Assembly: GCA_903825245.1 (NCBI GenBank)
Contig: CAIJZX010000012.1
Location: forward strand, 76,059-140,058
Direction of reading: 5' to 3'
From: Candidatus Kerfeldbacteria bacterium
GTDB lineage: Bacteria > Patescibacteriota > Patescibacteriia > SBBC01 > CAIJZX01
DNA: 64,000 nucleotides
A program made the translations under genes and the position numbers. Positions 20,541-29,991 of this stretch are shown piece after piece (positions within the stretch are counted from its first letter, which is position 1; every line of letters begins with the position of its first letter). The notes under the pieces are model-generated. The model worked only from the letters and a program-made list of their open reading frames with translations, was not told where the DNA came from and did no database searches.

Positions 20541-20569
20541 TTGACATAATGCCTTATTTTCGCTACTAT
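20541..20569 (+). promoter_or_regulatory. sigma70 promoter of tRNA-Lys
   Basis: TTGACA-17 nt-TACTAT. Confidence 0.8.
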
Positions 20570-20586: not shown

Positions 20587-20661
20587 GGGTTCCTAGCTCA
20601 ATGGTAGAGCAACGGCCTTTTAAGCCGTGGGTTCTGGGTTCGAGTCCCAGGGGACCCACCA
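20587..20661 (+). tRNA. tRNA-Lys (anticodon TTT), CCA encoded
   Basis: GGGTTCC/GGGACCC acceptor, GCTC/GAGC D arm, ACGGC-CTTTTAA-GCCGT, CTGGG-TTCGAGT-CCCAG, ACCA. Confidence 0.97.
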
Positions 20662-22418
20662 GCCAACAATTTGCGCCCCGAACTCATCCCGGCGATATGC
20701 CCAAGGATGTCTTGGGGCAACTTCAATTTAATACGTATTTCATAGGGTAAAAGTTGTTTTTCCTTACGTCGTCCGGCAATGCTGTCTTCCGCAGTGGAAG
20801 GACGGGAATATATAATGATCTCCTCGATCAGGGCATGAAGAAGCTGGTCGAGCTCCCGGCGGTCGCCAAAAATATCATTAAGTGCCTCCGAGTACTTTTT
20901 ATTGAACACATTAAGGCTAGAAATGTAGCTATCTGGCATTGCGTTTTTTGAAATGAGTAGGTCTAGCTTTTCCAATTCAGCTGTTAGTAGCACAATCTGC
21001 TTCTCCAACTTCTCCATTTCCTCTTTAAGCTTCGGCTGTTTGATATAACCAAGCTTATGCTGTTCCAAGATATTGTTTTTCCTCGCTGGCATTGCATCAA
21101 GCAACTGTCGCAACTGCTCTCTTTTCTTGGCGAAGTGTTTCTTTTCCGATTGTGTAGATTTTAGTTTTTGTTGGTACTTGAATACAGCCTCTGGGTTTTG
21201 TAAAAACTCTTTTGTCTTAGTAACTACATATCGTTCTATTTCTTCGGCTGGCAATGGAATTGTAAAACAATTTATTTCGTATTTGCTCGTATTTTTTCGA
21301 GCACACTTGTAGTAATAGGCAAAATTATCAGGCGCTGTTGTAAGCTTCTTTCGTTCCCCAATCCACCGATACATTGTAGGATCAGCGTCCGGCTTGAAAC
21401 ATGCATCACATTTAAGTAATCCTCTTAATAAATATATGTGTCCTTCTCGGGGCTCATCAATGATGTTTTTTGTCTGGGCAAGTATGTTTTGGGCTTTTTC
21501 AAAAGTCCCTACATCAATGATCTGTGGCAATGCATAGGGTGAAATACTCCACTTAGAAGGTTCTACCCGCTTACCGTCTCTTGTTTTACCAAAGTAGTAT
21601 TTACCAATGTATATGGGGTCTTTTAATATCTCTCTTACAATTTCCATTCGCCAAAAGTTCGGCGAACTCTTCTTTCTTATTGCCCCTTTATATTCTTTAT
21701 ACAAGACTGATGATGTTTCAGGTGAAGGCCGCTCCTCCTCCGTGAGTATCTTCGCGATCCGCTGTGCGGAAAGTTTTTGTGAAACGCACATGTCGAAAAT
21801 TGATCTGATAACTTCGGCTTCGGCTTCGAAGATGACCAACCTCTTTTCACTGTCTTTAATGAAGCCGTATTTCATGCCCGATCCCATGACAACTCCGTTC
21901 TTAATCGCTTGTTCCCGTCCGGCTTGTGTTCTTTGCTTGATCGTCTCAACTTCTAATTCAGCGATGACACCAATGATGTTCAAAATCGCCTTTCCAAAAG
22001 GTGTAGACGTGTCTATGCTCTCTGTTGCCGACAAGAATTGAACGTCGTATTCACCGAAAAAGTCGATAACTTCTAAGAGGATTTTTAATCGACGTGCGAA
22101 ACGATCAATTTTGTATACCGCAACTGCGTCGAAAGGCCTGTCTTCGGGTGTAGAGTTTGTGAGATCCTCTTGAAGTTTCGCAAAAGCAGGTCTCTCTGGA
22201 AGATCAACGGTACCGCTAATCCCTTCATCAAAATAAATATACTGATCCCCAGCGAGAACCATTGCATCAAGCCCATTATCGAGTTTTCCTCGGGCTTTTA
22301 TCAAGCCTAGTAACGCTTCTTGTTGGAGCTTTTTTCCGTACCTCTCAACCTGCTCATCAGTCGAAACCCGCAGGTAGAGAGCGACGCGGAGAGACGATTG
22401 TTGTTGGTTTCCGATCAT
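20598..22418 (-). CDS. Large serine recombinase (integrase)
   Basis: YLRVST.EQ catalytic Ser, DEGISG, RP.F, DRFAR, recombinase domain, LLRGLLKCDAC...YYKC zinc ribbon and coiled coil. Confidence 0.95.
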   Translation of the reverse strand: MIGNQQQSSLRVALYLRVSTDEQVERYGKKLQQEALLGLIKARGKLDNGLDAMVLAGDQYIYFDEGISGTVDLPERPAFAKLQEDLTNSTPEDRPFDAVAVYKIDRFARRLKILLEVIDFFGEYDVQFLSATESIDTSTPFGKAILNIIGVIAELEVETIKQRTQAGREQAIKNGVVMGSGMKYGFIKDSEKRLVIFEAEAEVIRSIFDMCVSQKLSAQRIAKILTEEERPSPETSSVLYKEYKGAIRKKSSPNFWRMEIVREILKDPIYIGKYYFGKTRDGKRVEPSKWSISPYALPQIIDVGTFEKAQNILAQTKNIIDEPREGHIYLLRGLLKCDACFKPDADPTMYRWIGERKKLTTAPDNFAYYYKCARKNTSKYEINCFTIPLPAEEIERYVVTKTKEFLQNPEAVFKYQQKLKSTQSEKKHFAKKREQLRQLLDAMPARKNNILEQHKLGYIKQPKLKEEMEKLEKQIVLLTAELEKLDLLISKNAMPDSYISSLNVFNKKYSEALNDIFGDRRELDQLLHALIEEIIIYSRPSTAEDSIAGRRKEKQLLPYEIRIKLKLPQDILGHIAGMSSGRKLLAGGSPGTRTQNPRLKRPLLYH

Positions 22419-22532
22419 AGGACAAGAGAGGTAACTAGCCCAGAACTATGCAAACATGATTATCATACTCGTTTTATTGCTATAAAGCCATAATTGCTAA
22501 CCCGAGGTAATTAAACTATAATTCAATCTGTT

Positions 22533-22703
22533 TCCGAGGCCTAGATGCTCATTTCTACAATTTACTTAGCCTAAACTTCGGCCTATGGCCGGGGCACGGC
22601 GATCAAACCAAGAGAGGCGAACAGCTCCTAGTCAGAGCACCTCTCTTGGTCGTGCGTGGAAACGCGCACGGGTGGCCGTAAGGTCATCGCTGGCTAGGGG
22701 CTT
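22533..22703 (+). ncRNA. Candidate multi-branch structured RNA (unassigned)
   Basis: 11-bp perfect stem, two GNRA-capped stems, closing helix; TTGCTA-17-TATAAT promoter at 22494-22522. Confidence 0.5.
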
Positions 22704-22743
22704 TGTGTTTGTACAAACCCGCCGCCAGATATTTACAAAATAT

Positions 22744-22971
22744 ATGGCACAGGCAAAAACTGTTGGAATTATGAGCTTGGTTATTCTCGGCACATTGTTG
22801 CTTGGGACTACTTTTTGGTGGTTTCAGCTACGCCCATTTTCTGACCATAGGGCATGCGCGAAATATACTACTACCCAAGCAGAAAAGATGGATTTTGACC
22901 TCCATACGCCCATTTACTTTCCCGGTTATGGTGTGGTTTATGACATGTGCTTACATGGTAAGGGCTATTAA
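22744..22971 (+). CDS. Small membrane protein
   Basis: MAQAKTV start, TM, FWWFQLRP...C...YDMCLHGKG. Confidence 0.6.
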   Translation: MAQAKTVGIMSLVILGTLLLGTTFWWFQLRPFSDHRACAKYTTTQAEKMDFDLHTPIYFPGYGVVYDMCLHGKGY

Positions 22972-22974
22972 CGT

Positions 22975-23835
22975 ATGCAAATACTTCTCTGGTTGGCTTA
23001 CGCCGTTGTCGGTATATTCGTGATAGTGTTTCTCGCTGGTGGAGTTACTGCCGCTGTAAAGAATTCAGGAAAAAGAAGGCGTCTCCATTCTATAGGGGCA
23101 GTAGCACAAATTCCTGCTGATTTAAGGATAATCATGCGTGAGATTTATACTGCACATAAAAAACAAGACGTTGCACTCGTAAACTCGGTTACCGTTTCCA
23201 CTGGCATCGTGCAACTAAATAAAATTCTAGAATTGATGAAGCCAGAAAACCGACTCAAATACCTATCAGCAGGTATGCAGGGCGATGTGACTGCTTTTAC
23301 GGCAATGGAGAACGAGCTAGTATCAAGAAACTACAAGGTCAATGCGGCAAAGATTGTTACTGGTATTATCCTGAATGATCTCGATGATCCGCTTTTGAAA
23401 ATGAAAGGGCAGGAGACAGCCCCACCTTCCCCAAGTGCTAAGAGTAAAATCCTTCTCTTTGAAGATGACAAGATATTACGAACTTTGTATGAAGCAAAAT
23501 ATCATCAACAAGGGTTTGACGTTGCTGGGTATGACAATCCAACCAGCGACCCGGTGAGCGTTGTTTTGAGAGAAAAGCCTGATGTGATTTCAATGGATAT
23601 TGTCATGCCAATTATGGACGGGTTTACTGCAACCGAGTTGCTGAAAACCGATGCGCGAACAAAAGGTATTCCCATTGTTATTTTTACTAACCATGCACAG
23701 CATAAGGACATTGATCGTGGCAAGGCATTGGGTGCGGCGGATTACCTGATCAAAGCACATTTTACGCCTGATGAGGTGGTGGATCGTTTTCGGCGGGTTC
23801 TCAATTTAAATGACGTAGCAAATCGTAAACTTTGA
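22975..23835 (+). CDS. Membrane-anchored protein with C-terminal response-regulator receiver domain
   Basis: N-terminal TM; KILLFEDD, SMDIVMPIMDG, IFTN, DYLIK. Confidence 0.85.
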   Translation: MQILLWLAYAVVGIFVIVFLAGGVTAAVKNSGKRRRLHSIGAVAQIPADLRIIMREIYTAHKKQDVALVNSVTVSTGIVQLNKILELMKPENRLKYLSAGMQGDVTAFTAMENELVSRNYKVNAAKIVTGIILNDLDDPLLKMKGQETAPPSPSAKSKILLFEDDKILRTLYEAKYHQQGFDVAGYDNPTSDPVSVVLREKPDVISMDIVMPIMDGFTATELLKTDARTKGIPIVIFTNHAQHKDIDRGKALGAADYLIKAHFTPDEVVDRFRRVLNLNDVANRKL

Positions 23836-23856
23836 AGCCGCTAATCGATTATACCT

Positions 23857-24855
23857 ATGAGCCACTTCACTCCTCAAACTAGAGCACTCTCGATCCTCAC
23901 TTTAATCACGGGGTTATTACTACTTGGCGCATCTTGCTCAAATAAAAGAGCGATAGATACGAACACAACTAACTCAAAGGTTACAGAAACCAACAATGCA
24001 GTATTGGCCAATATAAACACCACATATTCTAACCAGAATACTTCGGTTGTTGTAAATAACTCGGTAAATCCATCATCCAACTCGAATCAATCTATTACAA
24101 ACGGAAAAGTTGTTGTACAACCAAAAAACACGAATACGGAGAAAAAAGTATTAAATACCAACACGGCTCCAAAAGTGTTGAGCACCAACACTAACGTGGA
24201 TGTCCCACCAGCTACAACACCTGCGCCCACAGCGCGGCTAACAGCATCAACAGATTGCCCAGTTTTGCAACCGGCGGTGCTGACTTGGAATACAACCGGC
24301 GCTCAAACCGTCACATTAGAATCCTCAACGGGTGGGGATCGCCAGACGATAGACATACAAAATGCGGCTACGGGAAACGTAACTATAAATTCTCAAAAAA
24401 CCACGAGCTATTATCTAACTGCAACAAATCAAAGTGGACAGAAAGCAACGGCGCAGGTTCGGCTAGATCGCCCAAACGTAGACCCTAACTATCCGATTAT
24501 CACCGGCTACGCCGATACTTTGGGCGTGGTTTCTCATTCATCAAGCTATAACGGGTATGGCTGTGGTGGTAAGGGTCAGCCGATTGCACACATCGGCGAC
24601 ACCATAACGTTAACTGTTGACGCGTATGATCCGAATGGCGATCCGTTGGTATACAGATTCAGCTCAGTGTTTCCATCAGCCATGGGTGTAACCAGTGGTT
24701 GGACAAGCAGTAGCACCTATACGTGGACATTCACTTCTGCTGATGTGGGGTCGATGAGATGCGTCTATATTTCCGTAAAAGATAATGACGGGTATGACCG
24801 AATTGCTGATTATGACGATACAAGCCCTGCTTGCTATGATATTGCACACCCATAG
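23857..24855 (+). CDS. Lipoprotein with Asn/Thr-rich stalk and Ig/PKD-like domains
   Basis: LLLGASC lipobox; LTWNTTGA...TTSYYLTATN; DAYDPNGDPLVYRF. Confidence 0.75.
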   Translation: MSHFTPQTRALSILTLITGLLLLGASCSNKRAIDTNTTNSKVTETNNAVLANINTTYSNQNTSVVVNNSVNPSSNSNQSITNGKVVVQPKNTNTEKKVLNTNTAPKVLSTNTNVDVPPATTPAPTARLTASTDCPVLQPAVLTWNTTGAQTVTLESSTGGDRQTIDIQNAATGNVTINSQKTTSYYLTATNQSGQKATAQVRLDRPNVDPNYPIITGYADTLGVVSHSSSYNGYGCGGKGQPIAHIGDTITLTVDAYDPNGDPLVYRFSSVFPSAMGVTSGWTSSSTYTWTFTSADVGSMRCVYISVKDNDGYDRIADYDDTSPACYDIAHP

Positions 24856-24903
24856 TTACGTTAACAGCGCAGTAAGTAATCAACAATGATTAGCTAAAAC
24901 ATT

Positions 24904-25161
24904 ATGCCGAGATTAAATTCAAGTGACAACGAGGACGAGATGAGTTCAAGGTTACGGCAAGGGGTTCTTGCTACTGTATTGACTTTGTCGCTTATCGGAT
25001 TAGGCGCGGCTGTTTTCGACGTTCACCATGTCTGGTGGGAAAATGATACGGTACAGGGAATACAGATGCTCTCATTGATTGGTGTGTTCTACTGCCTATT
25101 GGCAACATTGCTCAAAATTCTTAATAAAAAGAAACTATCCGAGGATAACTCCGAGGATTAG
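24904..25161 (+). CDS. Small two-TM protein
   Basis: 85-aa ORF with two hydrophobic segments. Confidence 0.55.
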   Translation: MPRLNSSDNEDEMSSRLRQGVLATVLTLSLIGLGAAVFDVHHVWWENDTVQGIQMLSLIGVFYCLLATLLKILNKKKLSEDNSED

Positions 25162-25435
25162 CCCTTCCTGGTAATTTACTACTTAATTAACGAATCTTTC
25201 TTTGGCCGTATTTGTCAATACGTCGATAGATTTTTTAGTAACTTCCGGCGCACTTGTGCTGGCGTTTTTTTCTTTGTTGAAATGAGGGTGATCAATCGCT
25301 TTTTCATATAATTGAGTATACCATCCGCCCTTATCTTTCCAAGGGTACTCTTTGAATCAAGATAGCAAAAATTAGGAGGATGTGGTTTTATGGACTATAA
25401 TTGAGTAGTTAAACCGTGCAATCTCGTTATTGGCA

Positions 25436-28400
25436 ATGATCCTAAGTGCAGCATTAGACCGAATAAACGACCCCGAAGTGTCCTTATTTGTTTTGTTATT
25501 GCTTATTATGGTAGGAATCATCTACCTTTCCCGATGGATAGTTCAAAAGATCAAGGAGAGTGGAAATACAATTTCGGCAAAGACGAACAAAGAATACAAG
25601 AATCTATGTAAAAAAAGAGAGTTTTTTTGGCACAGGCTATTTAGGGATTTTTACGCCCCCTCAGTACGCTCTTCAATTGCAATGGGTGTAATCGCATTTG
25701 GAATATATGCGTTGTCACACTTTATCCAAACAAAGAGCCAAACCCTTTCTTTTGTTAATGGCAGTCACTACCAAAACTTGATCGCAATTTACTCTGGTAT
25801 CGCCGGCATTATCTTTGCACTTATAATCTTTGTCGCTGAAAGCTTGCGCGATGAGCAATCACGCGATCAAGCACGCGTAATACTTCGAACGACTTACCTA
25901 TACCCACTGGTGGTTCTTGCTGTTCTAAACTATAGCGTTTACGCATGGGGAGACGTCAATTCTCTTGGCGTAGTCCCCGTTTTATTTCTTGGAGCATTTT
26001 CTATTTTTTCACTTTTCCGTCTATTTAGAATACTCTTAGATAGGAGTGAAAACTTTAACCAAAAAATTAAGTTGCTAACCGATCGTTTGAGGCTAAGTAT
26101 TGATGGCGCTATTCGTCAGCGACTGGGTAATGTGATTTTATTTAAATGGCTTACTGATTATAAAATACCGATTTCCTTCTACCCGTTTACTACGGAGGGC
26201 TCAGCATACTACAATTTTACTTCAAAAAAATCGGGAATTGTTGCAGACATCGATCTGGGAAAACTCGAAGACTTTGCCAAAATGGTTGAAGAGGCGGCAA
26301 ACAAGAATGATTTTAGTTTTTTTGGCAGAGAAGGAAAGGCGCTATCGATCAATACATCGACGGATACGACGGAACCAAGTGAGGGCAGCACTAGAACGTA
26401 TTCAAAGAATGATCACGTATATTTTGGCAAGCTATACAGAGACGAGGTCAAGCTTGACGACGTGCTTCTTTCTGTTAAAAAAGACATCATCGGCGATCAA
26501 AAGAAGGTGCTAGATAAGCTCAATGCCACTTTTAAAAAAATCTACGTAGTAAAAAAAGAAGAGCACGGTATTTCCGAACAAAACCGACTAGAGCTTTCCG
26601 CACAGAAAGACCAATTTATAGCCGCTGTAAAAGCGGGAAGTATGGGAAAGATAAGAGAGGGCTCGGCAATATATTTAAGCCTTGCAGAGACTTTTCTAAA
26701 AGCCCTCAATGAATGTGGCGGGGGTTATAGTTTTGATCAAGCTCGCCGCGAAATGGGTTCGATAATTAGCCGTTGGAATGAAGCGGATTGGCTTCAAGAG
26801 GATATTAGCGAAATACATAGAGCAGCACTAGACACGCATGATCAAAACGTGATTGATGAAATTGCCTTTTTGCCTATGAAGATCGTGAGTCTAGCCATAG
26901 AATCACGAGACCATTTTATTTTTCAGACCTTCATTCAGTTTCAATTGAGGTTGTATCTCGGATCACTGCGCGAGAATGATACCGATTTAAAGAGGCATTT
27001 GCTTGATCGTTCATGGCGATATTTAAAAGAATCTGCTGATTTTTGGGTCGAGCACGAAATAACAAAGGAAGATAATGAGAAAGATATTCCTAGGTTGAAG
27101 GATTTTGCTATATACTACTTTTCTGTATTTCAGACCATACTGCGGGAAGCCGTAATAAAAAAGGACAAAGATGGGTTTGAGCTCTTCGCAGTTGCCCTTT
27201 CAGGCTTGTTTGATTCTTTCAAATATACCCTTGAAGATGAGCGCACTCGGCAACCAGTGGCTGATGCTATTAAGGAAATTTGGTTAAATAAAGACCAGAT
27301 GATATTTGGCCTAACGAGCTGGATTTTTTCAGAATATAAAAAGAATCCAAACAATGAGACAACAAAAAGTTCATACGGAAAAATTCAGTCCCTAATAAAA
27401 AACAATATAGTTGATTTAACGTCTACCTTTCTATCAGTTCATGACTTTAAAGTAGGTGATTTCTGGGGATGGGATCGTTGGGATATGATTGCCGATGGTC
27501 AGGTGCATACTATCGATGTTAGCGGGAAAATAGAAAGATATTTTATTGTTCGCGGGTTGAAGATACTAGCCACAATGACTGACGATAACATTCGAGCCAT
27601 AGAACTACCGACGAACCGAAATATGGCATTTCAGGCTGATAGCGGTGGCGGCTTGCTTATGGTATTGGAGCAAATTCAAAACAATCAAAGTGATTGGGAT
27701 GCGCACCTTACCCCGGTTGAAATTGGGAAAATTGATCTTTTTAAGGCACTTCTCCAAAAGGCGAAGGCGAAACAAGAATCAGACGAGCAAGAACAGGTAA
27801 AGGCTAGTCCAATCAGCGAAAAGAAGAGGAAAGAATTCATTCAGGAGTTTCTTGAAGGCTATCGTCAGTCGAGTTATTTCCGTCATATCGTGAAGCACTA
27901 TGGCAATTTGGTCGAAAAACCAAATGATCAAATTTCAGAAAACAGACTGGGCGTGAATATGGTGGAAGATAAGCAAGTCTTCTTTGAGCACTGGCACGTG
28001 CACTACTCCAAATGGGGTAACCAGTTTGGGCACGACATGGCCAGAGCCGAAAATGACAGCATACTTTCTAAGGTCGTTAGTTTTAGTGCAACTCTAAACG
28101 AGACGGACTTAGATCAAGTTATTGAAAGATTTACAGAAAAGAACGACATCATCATTATCGCTTTAAACCAAGCGATATTTGGATTCTTCCATCAATCAAA
28201 CAAATTTGAATATAAACGTTTTGATGATCCTGAAAAAATACCATCATACAGTCAGGAGGGGTGGTGGAAGATTGATCAAAACCTCCGTATCCCAGTTTTT
28301 GAAATCCATGACCGTAATCAGAACAACGCCATCCTAGTTTTAAACAAGAAAAAAATGGGTCGATTAGAACAATACTCGCCATTGCGTGATGCAGAACTGC

Positions 28401-28636
28401 CTAGTGACCAAGTTGAACATTTCTATTTTTCCATTAAAGCTTTCTCAGAGAATCCTGATTTGATGACAAAGATCATATCCAATCCGCCTGCTTGGTTAAC
28501 GGAGAAGGGAAATGAAGAACAACAAAAAGATCACCTCAAAGGAAAGGTGTGGATGAAAATATATGAGTCCTATGCCTATAACAAGGGTGATGATTTTGAG
28601 GGGTATATTTTCCCAGTTGCTAACCCGCTAGTCTAG
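25436..28636 (+). CDS. Large membrane protein (N-terminal TM bundle, DUF2254-like; long helical cytoplasmic region)
   Basis: About 1066-aa ORF, about 5 N-terminal TM helices, AT-rich; family call is inference. Confidence 0.7.
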   Translation: MILSAALDRINDPEVSLFVLLLLIMVGIIYLSRWIVQKIKESGNTISAKTNKEYKNLCKKREFFWHRLFRDFYAPSVRSSIAMGVIAFGIYALSHFIQTKSQTLSFVNGSHYQNLIAIYSGIAGIIFALIIFVAESLRDEQSRDQARVILRTTYLYPLVVLAVLNYSVYAWGDVNSLGVVPVLFLGAFSIFSLFRLFRILLDRSENFNQKIKLLTDRLRLSIDGAIRQRLGNVILFKWLTDYKIPISFYPFTTEGSAYYNFTSKKSGIVADIDLGKLEDFAKMVEEAANKNDFSFFGREGKALSINTSTDTTEPSEGSTRTYSKNDHVYFGKLYRDEVKLDDVLLSVKKDIIGDQKKVLDKLNATFKKIYVVKKEEHGISEQNRLELSAQKDQFIAAVKAGSMGKIREGSAIYLSLAETFLKALNECGGGYSFDQARREMGSIISRWNEADWLQEDISEIHRAALDTHDQNVIDEIAFLPMKIVSLAIESRDHFIFQTFIQFQLRLYLGSLRENDTDLKRHLLDRSWRYLKESADFWVEHEITKEDNEKDIPRLKDFAIYYFSVFQTILREAVIKKDKDGFELFAVALSGLFDSFKYTLEDERTRQPVADAIKEIWLNKDQMIFGLTSWIFSEYKKNPNNETTKSSYGKIQSLIKNNIVDLTSTFLSVHDFKVGDFWGWDRWDMIADGQVHTIDVSGKIERYFIVRGLKILATMTDDNIRAIELPTNRNMAFQADSGGGLLMVLEQIQNNQSDWDAHLTPVEIGKIDLFKALLQKAKAKQESDEQEQVKASPISEKKRKEFIQEFLEGYRQSSYFRHIVKHYGNLVEKPNDQISENRLGVNMVEDKQVFFEHWHVHYSKWGNQFGHDMARAENDSILSKVVSFSATLNETDLDQVIERFTEKNDIIIIALNQAIFGFFHQSNKFEYKRFDDPEKIPSYSQEGWWKIDQNLRIPVFEIHDRNQNNAILVLNKKKMGRLEQYSPLRDAELPSDQVEHFYFSIKAFSENPDLMTKIISNPPAWLTEKGNEEQQKDHLKGKVWMKIYESYAYNKGDDFEGYIFPVANPLV

Positions 28637-28707
28637 TTAGCTTTATCCGGCCAACATCAAAGTAAAATCGGACTTTTCATTTTGTTTTTTGGTGCTATGG
28701 TTAATTT

Positions 28708-29127
28708 ATGGCTACCAGTAAACAAATCAAAACGGCAAGAATTATGTCCGAAAATGTCCGAAAATCGGTGTCCGCCGCCATGCGCGACGCTGGTTATTCA
28801 AATCGCTCGGCCGAGAAACCACAGCGGCTCACTCGGAGCAAGGGTTGGCAGGACTTGATGGATGAACACTTGCCTGATAAAACACTGCTAGGCGTCCATA
28901 AAGGCCTGTTACGAGACCCTGATTGGCGGGCGCGGGATTCTGGTCTAGATATGGCTTATAAACTCAAAGGCTCCTACAAAGCCACCAAGGTAAGTGTAGA
29001 GGATTCACTTGAACACTTGTCAGACGATGAGCTTGATGTGTTACTAGCCGAGCAGAAGCCAGCTATTGAACGGTATCAGCAATACAAAAGAACAAGACGT
29101 CATCCCGCTGCGCAACCGATTAAGTAA
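28708..29127 (+). CDS. Terminase small subunit-like HTH protein
   Basis: SAAMRDAGYS.RSA..P..LT.SKG and C-terminal LEHLSDDEL pattern of phage TerS. Confidence 0.6.
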   Translation: MATSKQIKTARIMSENVRKSVSAAMRDAGYSNRSAEKPQRLTRSKGWQDLMDEHLPDKTLLGVHKGLLRDPDWRARDSGLDMAYKLKGSYKATKVSVEDSLEHLSDDELDVLLAEQKPAIERYQQYKRTRRHPAAQPIK

Positions 29128-29135
29128 ACGATTGA

Positions 29136-29318
29136 ATGACCATGTTGACCGACAAACAGATCGAGGAGTTTCAGGCGCTTTATAAAAAGAATTTTGGGAC
29201 TGATATTAGCCGAGAGGAGGTGCTAGAGTCGGCTATTCGGCTCATTAACCTGATCAAAGTGGTATACAAACCGATGACAAAAGAAGAGTACAAGAGGTAC
29301 TCCGACGATCTGAGATAA
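29136..29318 (+). CDS. Small hypothetical protein
   Basis: MLTDKQIEEFQALYKKNFG.DISREE...L.NL..VVYKP; I recall this type next to CPR serine-integrase elements, unverified. Confidence 0.7.
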   Translation: MTMLTDKQIEEFQALYKKNFGTDISREEVLESAIRLINLIKVVYKPMTKEEYKRYSDDLR

Positions 29319-29328
29319 ACTAGATGCC

Positions 29329-29589
29329 CTACTTTTTTCTTTTTCTTACGGCACTAAATAACTTGTGAAGTAGCTGATCGTCGTCACTTGCAGTTGAAGA
29401 TATAGCCACATTGATCTTAGTGCCTGCGTGTAGGCCGGTTCTTACGACTGGGGCGTTGTCCGTAGATAAATGTTGTTTTACCCGACCAGTATGATCCCAA
29501 GCGGTTGCAATAAGGGAATCACCAATGCCAAGTTTATCGGTTTTAGCTCTTGGTTTGATTAGCCTTTTGATTGATTGAGGTAACTTCAT
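29329..29589 (-). CDS. Small basic hypothetical protein
   Basis: 86-aa ORF at the right end of the island. Confidence 0.5.
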   Translation of the reverse strand: MKLPQSIKRLIKPRAKTDKLGIGDSLIATAWDHTGRVKQHLSTDNAPVVRTGLHAGTKINVAISSTASDDDQLLHKLFSAVRKRKK

Positions 29590-29722
29590 GTATATACCTA
29601 TTAGCTTGTCGTAGGGGGCTTTTACGGGCTCCTAGACGCTTAATGTGGCGGTCTAAGCCCACGCAGAGTATAACAAAGTTTAGCCCTTTTGGTATAATTG
29701 AGTTCGGGGTAGAATGTGTTGT

Positions 29723-29991
29723 CCCACCAAAAACTAGCTATTACCAGACATCTGTATCGAAGATACGGAGTGTTTGGATATGAAAAATTGGGACGAGAAG
29801 GGCCGAGCACTTGCGCCGGTGGCGCGAGAGCGCAGGCCCCGGCTCGACGAAGTGCCGTTGCCGGGAACCCCGCAGGGTCGGCAACAAGCTTCGGCGAGGA
29901 GTCCCAGGGGACCCACCAAAAACTAGCAATTACCAGACATCTGTATCGAAGATACGGAGTGTTTGGATATGAAAATTGGGACGAGAAGGGC
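29723..29991 (+). repeat. Tandem direct repeat (about 80 bp, 29723-29803 and 29912-29991) with GC-rich structured spacer and a 20-bp tRNA 3'-end copy (29899-29918)
   Basis: Direct sequence comparison. Confidence 0.9.

Follow-up and report, generated by a model that had tools for sequence, protein, structure and literature searches.

Can a serine integrase have its C-terminus replaced by its own recombination, and if so, which of the two resulting ends is more than an accident? In canonical large serine integrases attP lies outside the integrase gene. The question is raised by a gene in the window (the whole 64,000-nucleotide stretch of a Candidatus Kerfeldbacteria contig analysed here), whose reading frame was predicted to have no stop in its element, to end in an antisense tRNA when integrated, and to acquire a longer end when the element ends are joined. 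Each of these points was reproduced. The open reading frame (22418..20598, minus strand, 606 aa in the integrated state) has no stop within the element and terminates inside tRNA-Lys, 18 residues after a shared GG; the antisense overlap with tRNA-Lys is again 64 nt when recomputed, and joining both cores by script gives 647 aa, with 59 residues after the GG and a TAA at 29543-45. The parts of the gene are as follows.

20660..22418, minus strand: large serine recombinase body (about 586 aa), with resolvase, recombinase and zinc-ribbon domains, a coiled coil and a final beta-hairpin
20598..20659, minus strand: integrated-state end of the integrase, antisense to the tRNA, 18 aa after the GG with TGA at 20598-600; accidental
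29543..29725, minus strand: putative excised-state tail, 59 aa after the GG, with no in-frame start codon before its motif
22431..22447, no strand assigned: motif of the AGTTC/GAACT type, resembling an arm, shortly before the integrase start

The enzyme is a large serine recombinase, as judged by its resolvase, recombinase and zinc-ribbon domains, its coiled coil and its attP repeat, an imperfect inverted repeat around a 2-bp crossover as is usual for this family. The body carries S19, D105-R106-x-x-R109 and C337/340/372/384. The N-terminal resolvase domain matches PF00239 (E 1.9e-30) and the recombinase domain PF07508 (E 1.9e-19); the zinc ribbon scores 20.7 bits with PF13408, below the 25.3 cut-off, yet its four cysteines are invariant. 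In the catalytic region, compared across 116 homologs, Y15, R17, S19, D105 and R106 are invariant and R109 is nearly so. The predicted structure (pLDDT 84) has coiled-coil helices at residues 420-492 and serine integrases as its top fold matches; its last strand and helix stop at about residue 579, and residues 580-606 are of low confidence. All canonical domains, and the catalytic S19 too, precede the core and hence lie within the body, which is the sole match in its own genome. The arm-like motif upstream of the gene is found by eye in most relatives, in either orientation, and is a possible autoregulatory site.

The element is an island of 9.07 kb at the 3' end of a tRNA-Lys(TTT) gene, with a GC content of 42% as against 49% for the genome. 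Its ends and contents are these.

20541..20569, plus strand: sigma70-like promoter of the tRNA gene (TTGACA-17-TACTAT), a consensus match only, with 5 such sites found versus 3.8 expected in the region
20587..20661, plus strand: tRNA-Lys(TTT), the target gene; the host (B) arm of attL consists of its T-arm and acceptor stem
20655..20661, plus strand: attL core CCCACCA, with the probable crossover at its AC dinucleotide, 20658-59 (the discriminator and the first C of CCA)
20660..20686, no strand assigned: element arm P' of attP, within the last codons of the integrase body; the same arm motif occurs in relatives
22585..29318, plus strand: seven cargo ORFs, encoding a 128 aa membrane protein, a 286 aa receiver-domain protein, proteins of 332 aa and 85 aa, a 1068 aa membrane protein, and proteins of 139 aa and 60 aa
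29670..29698, plus strand: promoter-like site of the extended -10 type (TG-n-TATAAT), within the P arm and directed across the core, with 1 found versus 1.4 expected
29699..29725, no strand assigned: element arm P of attP, an inverted repeat with the P' arm
29723..29729, plus strand: attR core CCCACCA, with the inferred crossover AC at 29726-27
29899..29918, plus strand: second copy of the tRNA 3' end, a host feature older than the element

The two cores (20655-61 and 29723-29) bound the element, and on the inner side of each lies one half of an imperfect inverted repeat of 23 bp (20664-86 and 29699-721, 78% complementary), which is centred on the AC at 20658-59 and 29726-27. A genome of the same family (G009) has an empty tRNA-Lys locus (L006), in which the CCA continues directly into a homologue of the window from 29730 onward. 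Because of this empty site the element boundary is fixed, and since the inverted repeat also centres on the AC, the point of joining is not arbitrary. An alternative right end at the second tRNA copy (a 20-bp repeat at 29899-918, joining to which gives 644 aa) was rejected; it has no inverted arm, and because the empty relative carries it too, it is host sequence and not an element end. This copy belongs to a host-side 189-bp spaced repeat (window 29723-29991) common to the same-family genome (L006:1571-1860).

Among the cargo ORFs the receiver domain gives the only family match. The 1068-aa membrane-anchored ORF (25430-28636, plus strand) has no match in Pfam, NCBIfam or PHROGs, and two other ORFs without family matches (28708-29127 and 22585-22971, both plus strand) have relatives in 3 and 6 elements of the clade, respectively. 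Three elements (L286, L287, L288) share an ORF pair that by eye resembles a tyrosine-recombinase-type protein and one with a clamp-loader-like C-terminal domain. The tRNA promoter is directed toward the 3' end of the integrase gene, and convergent transcription from it could reduce int expression after insertion. By eye, 6 of the 19 distal ends have a similar extended -10 site, located at -35 to -46; the one in the window is encoded by the tail's I-I-P codons, and faces host DNA when integrated and runs antisense to int on the circle.

The gene spans its own attachment site, such that the circle would encode a 647-aa tailed enzyme and the chromosome a tail-less body. For four low-depth DNA contig sets of a single study, no circle or empty-site joint is listed, an uninformative result. 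The integrated ends differ widely among relatives. In 28 of these they range from 0 to 39 aa and are absent (an immediate stop) in 8, and within a single 90%-identity cluster (13 members) there are six versions derived from tRNAs, in addition to immediate stops. All three frames of the arm are in use among 120 proteins (58, 41 and 10 by pattern, with 11 unclassified). These comparisons indicate that the integrated tail is accidental and varies with the tRNA that is hit. The idea of state-dependent tails thus stands insofar as recombination of the element splits its integrase gene, but a reading of the 18-aa integrated end as that of a second designed isoform is not supported, and the switch is between a tail that is present and a tail that is absent. 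Of 30 integrated bodies, 28 are open from the start of the match through the core; in one exception (L282) a stop falls at the far 5' end (another figure gives it an open frame of 593 aa), and the other (L304) is frameshifted.

We then consider the other end, which contains a recognizable motif.

29630..29683, minus strand: conserved 18-codon tail motif, a hydrophobic strand-like stretch followed by L-D-+-x-I-x-R-[IL]-G

Distal arms of related elements were located from DNA alone, using an iteratively trained matrix and requiring a core match; the hits of this matrix also served to train it, and a reverse-strand control reached 9.2 at most. Arms scoring at least 9.5 are present in 23 of 28 elements and give 31 candidate tails; four elements are short of flank, and the arm of L109 is low-scoring. 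The profile set comprises the 19 tails of at least 27 residues, all of which have the motif in common, with 12 short candidates left out, two of them from L300 and L303; in both of these elements the motif-bearing arm was chosen, which in L303 is not the nearest one. Because of the kinship among elements, these counts are not independent of one another.

All 19 tails score best in the frame of their own integrase (leave-one-out, three frames), above both the tRNA side and 200 shuffles. The window tail scores 11.0 bits with a profile of the 18 other elements, the second-lowest of the 19 scores, compared with -1.1 and -1.9 in the other frames and 5.6 for the best of 200 shuffles. The L109 tail, outside the profile, is also in frame (E 4.7e-5). 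Frames 0, 1 and 2 across the core all occur, and body and tail agree every time; because the frames differ among lineages yet the ends match, indels beside the arms must have been compensated on the other side, and the tree requires at least two frame changes. Past the distal core, the frame used is open for a median of 50 codons versus 9 in the others (20 tails). In seven hand-picked close pairs, pooled pN for the tail codons is 0.18 and pS is 0.61, and tail identity by codon position is 0.50/0.61/0.37. Tails are 27-127 aa long, with the motif internal and followed by few to many variable residues.

Homologs that stop before att, or tails random in length and sequence, would have counted against state-dependent tails; neither applies to the excised tail, which is conserved, in frame and under purifying selection. 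Neutral read-through, arising from compact placement of attP at the end of the gene, is a true description of the integrated tail; as the origin of both tails it is largely refuted, and we regard it as very improbable indeed.

None of the top 120 homologs is a tailed protein (0/120), nor is any of 59 cluster members, and the tail profile has no Pfam match below E 0.028 and none in the PDB. A weak search with the profile found no longer protein, and its 43 matches among representative sequences are 41 short ORFs and two long, seemingly spurious proteins. Five related elements (L302, L267/L270, L268/L271, L266 and L269) have tails of 18-24 aa only, with the second half of the motif missing from the 8-30 kb searched, and one subclade may persist without a full tail. 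In one family at tRNA-Val (L302, L266, L267/L270, L268, L269, L300 and L303), attP-like arms are arrayed 1-7 kb apart, each followed by an 18-24-codon open frame, in a cassette-like arrangement.

That gene callers list such distal ORFs as stand-alone proteins (as in the 43 matches) raises the alternative of a separate small peptide, acting for example in trans or coupled to translation of the companion gene described below, to which fusion with the integrase is secondary. Some in-frame GTG, TTG or ATG lies near 13 of 20 tails and the companion's start overlaps the tail, and separate expression is conceivable in some elements with nearby starts. But an in-frame ATG is absent nearby for 15 of the 20, there is no start codon whatever in 7, the window included, and a free peptide has no need to track the integrase frame through three-frame changes. 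We consider this explanation quite improbable. Since its frame tracks that of the integrase, and since it has no start codon here, the tail would matter only when fused.

A naturally joined gene is found in one genome (G703), in which tandem insertion has created an attP-like junction in the chromosome. The upstream integrase reads into the tail of its neighbour as one ORF (L283:7511-9418, minus strand; protein P0259, 635 aa), and a protein in the same 90% cluster (P0260) ends in an antisense tRNA. The C-terminal part of P0259 resembles DUF4368-labelled clusters at 0.91-0.92, which is a lead only. Production of a full-length hybrid by tandem insertion is also what suicidal-type control calls for, in which the tail is needed for any efficient recombination, and integration would inactivate the enzyme and lock the element until a circle or a tandem copy supplies the tailed form. 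Such control was proposed for DsiB by McMurdie 2011 (PMC3146451), is described as holding for archaeal SSV-type integrases (PMC7253208), and agrees with selection on the tail. It fits less well with a body that retains all of the catalytic and DNA-binding domains, with integrated bodies that are open to the core in 28 of 30 cases, unlike dead pseudogenes, and with a conserved companion suggestive of an excision pathway; we think it unlikely, though worth keeping in view.

The sites at which these enzymes insert are of one type. Among 32 distinct integrase genes, 30 terminate at the 3' end of a tRNA, the others being one contig end and one tandem case, and two broken genes (L034 and L035) with the same geometry were left out of this set. 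Valine tRNA genes account for 13 of the targets and lysine for 7, followed by Glu (4), Gly (2), Cys (1), Leu (1) and two unnamed, or six amino-acid types among 28 named. Placed from the T-loop, the core corresponds to the discriminator and first C, reading GT in 27 and GA in 3 on the integrase strand. The distance from the core to GTTC or GTTA is exactly 24 nt in 28 of 30 element (P') arms, as compared to 20 nt for the T-loop GTTC (in tRNA-Lys, GTTCG starts 20 nt from the crossover), an apparent 4-bp shift of the outer motif between the P' arm and the T-loop; the other host arm is without a clear motif. In LI integrase the outer (ZD) motif of attB is described as shifted 5 bp inward (PMC3783163), and the 24- versus 20-nt spacing resembles that shift, which suggests by analogy that the T-loop serves the enzyme as its host-side arm.

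With so many tRNA targets some restraint would pay, and the arm-like site upstream of the start codon might provide one route to it. The tail could therefore be a negative regulator on the circle (a degradation signal, autoinhibition, or repression of int) that limits repeat integration into essential tRNA genes. Its motif is internal, with variable residues after it, unlike a terminal degron, and the enzyme would be damped when integration is most needed; this we judge improbable.

Next to the tail is a small gene that is a potential partner in recombination.

29329..29589, minus strand: 86-aa companion ORF, starting inside the tail coding region in another frame; conserved in the clade

Companion ORFs (74-141 aa, with a conserved C-terminal motif) accompany 21 of 24 elements. 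They share the strand of the integrase in every case and either overlap the end of the tail (as here), lie just before the integrase, or are between the two. The window companion was matched at E 5e-9 before its entry into the profile. The three elements without a significant match (L280, L108 and L281) have weak ones at matching positions. The companion has no family match and no usable match in an atlas search, its predicted structure is of poor quality (pTM 0.25), and no similarity was found between tail and companion (probability 0.2%). Its size and linkage make it a candidate directionality factor, a class of proteins described as sharing no common fold (PMC11795197). In six elements the companion starts directly after the R-I-G codons, and conservation of R-I-G could partly reflect the companion's ribosome-binding site.

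The sequences establish that the gene is split, where the boundaries lie, that the tail is conserved and in frame, that the catalytic body is intact, and that tRNA 3' ends are the target. A plausible mechanism is that on the circle the tailed enzyme would pair attP with a tRNA 3' end, using the T-loop GTTCG as host arm and crossing over at the discriminator and C, and reading the T-loop and CCA in this manner would make many tRNAs usable as targets. After insertion the tail codons would lie 9 kb from the rest of the gene, with no start codon of their own, and the body would end at whichever stop the antisense tRNA provides. As the tail-less enzyme keeps all canonical domains and is the only genomic copy, any excision would have to be its work, probably with the companion as directionality factor, and excision or tandem insertion would restore the tailed gene. 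We favour this division of labour, with the tailed enzyme integrating and the tail-less enzyme excising together with the companion, because the body keeps the domains needed and is the sole enzyme present once inserted, and we give it about an even chance. A more specific version, which we put forward tentatively and with a chance well short of even, is that the tail is a module fused only on the circle that occupies or shields the companion-binding surface, so that the same gene would yield an integrase while the element is free and an excisionase once it is inserted, and that the T-loop and CCA constitute a one-armed site usable in almost any genome. A complex prediction weighs on neither side, with body residues 320-586 and tail residues 1-45 at 0.73 and one control at 0.67.

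The clade is sparse. Scoring of 8000 candidates gave 723 homologs at E <= 0.001, of which the best 120 are 45-56% identical and come from Patescibacteria wherever named. Members are present in 4 of 400 genomes of the phylum and in none of 300 genomes of the host's class, and none was found in viral contigs or a phage collection. Among 105 full-length serine recombinases of greater distance, six (L048, L058, L092, L119, L153 and L226; 27-28% identity) likewise have their stop within a tRNA or tmRNA read in antisense, so the habit of ending in an antisense RNA is wider than the clade. The available sections of the Islander 2015 report (PMC4383910) state that tRNA genes were not a known target of serine integrases, those of a 2025 TIGER note give no breakdown by family, and the word 'tRNA' is absent from the main text of Durrant 2022 (PMC10083194) as available. 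A literature search whose coverage excluded most subscription journals found no description of this integrase clade or of a conserved circle-only tail.

The direction of serine integrase reactions is currently ascribed to coiled-coil geometry and separate factors, and a cis module removed by recombination would be a further layer. Integrases of this clade mined from chromosomes are the truncated form, and screens may have tested the wrong protein. An enzyme with so broad a choice of tRNA 3' ends is interesting both for use as an insertion tool and as a path for gene flow in Patescibacteria.

The notion of a switchable tail has published precedents, including one with a serine recombinase (DsiB, PMC3146451; Mx8, PMC6070905), which we compare here as the available portions of the cited sources describe them. 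Dehalococcoides DsiB is likewise a large serine recombinase at an island end, with its 3' end running antisense into a structural-RNA gene, and its islands also occur in tandem. McMurdie 2011 (PMC3146451) notes that dsiB always overlaps attL and is maybe fully functional only on the circle or beside an adjacent island, a remark that our proposal would, if true, turn into a testable mechanism. DsiB differs in having a single tmRNA (ssrA) target whereas many tRNAs are used here, and in belonging to a six-gene module with a second serine recombinase whereas there is one recombinase here; none of the Dsi module families (DsiA, ParB-like, Mom-like) is among the scanned ORFs of the element. By description, DsiB C-termini are divergent and no conserved circle-encoded tail is reported in those portions, in contrast to the conserved tail here.

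In phage Mx8 (and Mx9), attP is inside int and integration gives a new 3' end (PMC6070905, PMC4383910); the altered Mx8 enzyme remains active with a changed site preference, according to a review (PMC6070905). Mx8 integrase is a phage tyrosine recombinase with a fixed target, and the effect was shown by experiment, whereas ours is a serine recombinase of a small non-phage island, with an effect predicted from sequence. The archaeal SSV1 and pT26-2 integrases (Badel et al. 2020, PMC7253208) are similarly split at tRNA genes, in antiparallel orientation and with many tRNA targets, and also form hybrids from tandem elements and mirrored frameshifts at att. They are, however, of the tyrosine family, restricted to archaea according to that source, and lose the catalytic residue with the part that is severed; in the present enzyme the catalytic serine stays with the canonical domains, and only a tail of 27-127 aa is cut off. 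With the canonical large serine integrases (LI/A118, SPbeta, Bxb1, phiC31) the enzyme shares domain order, zinc ribbon, coiled coil, an inverted-repeat attP and a 2-bp crossover, and possibly also an inward-shifted attB outer motif and, as a candidate here, a small separate excision factor (PMC3783163, PMC11795197); the shift is 5 bp there versus an apparent 4 bp here, where only one host arm looks conserved. The system would thus work like the gene-splitting systems of Mx8 and SSV, and is a member of neither of these, nor of the Dsi islands.
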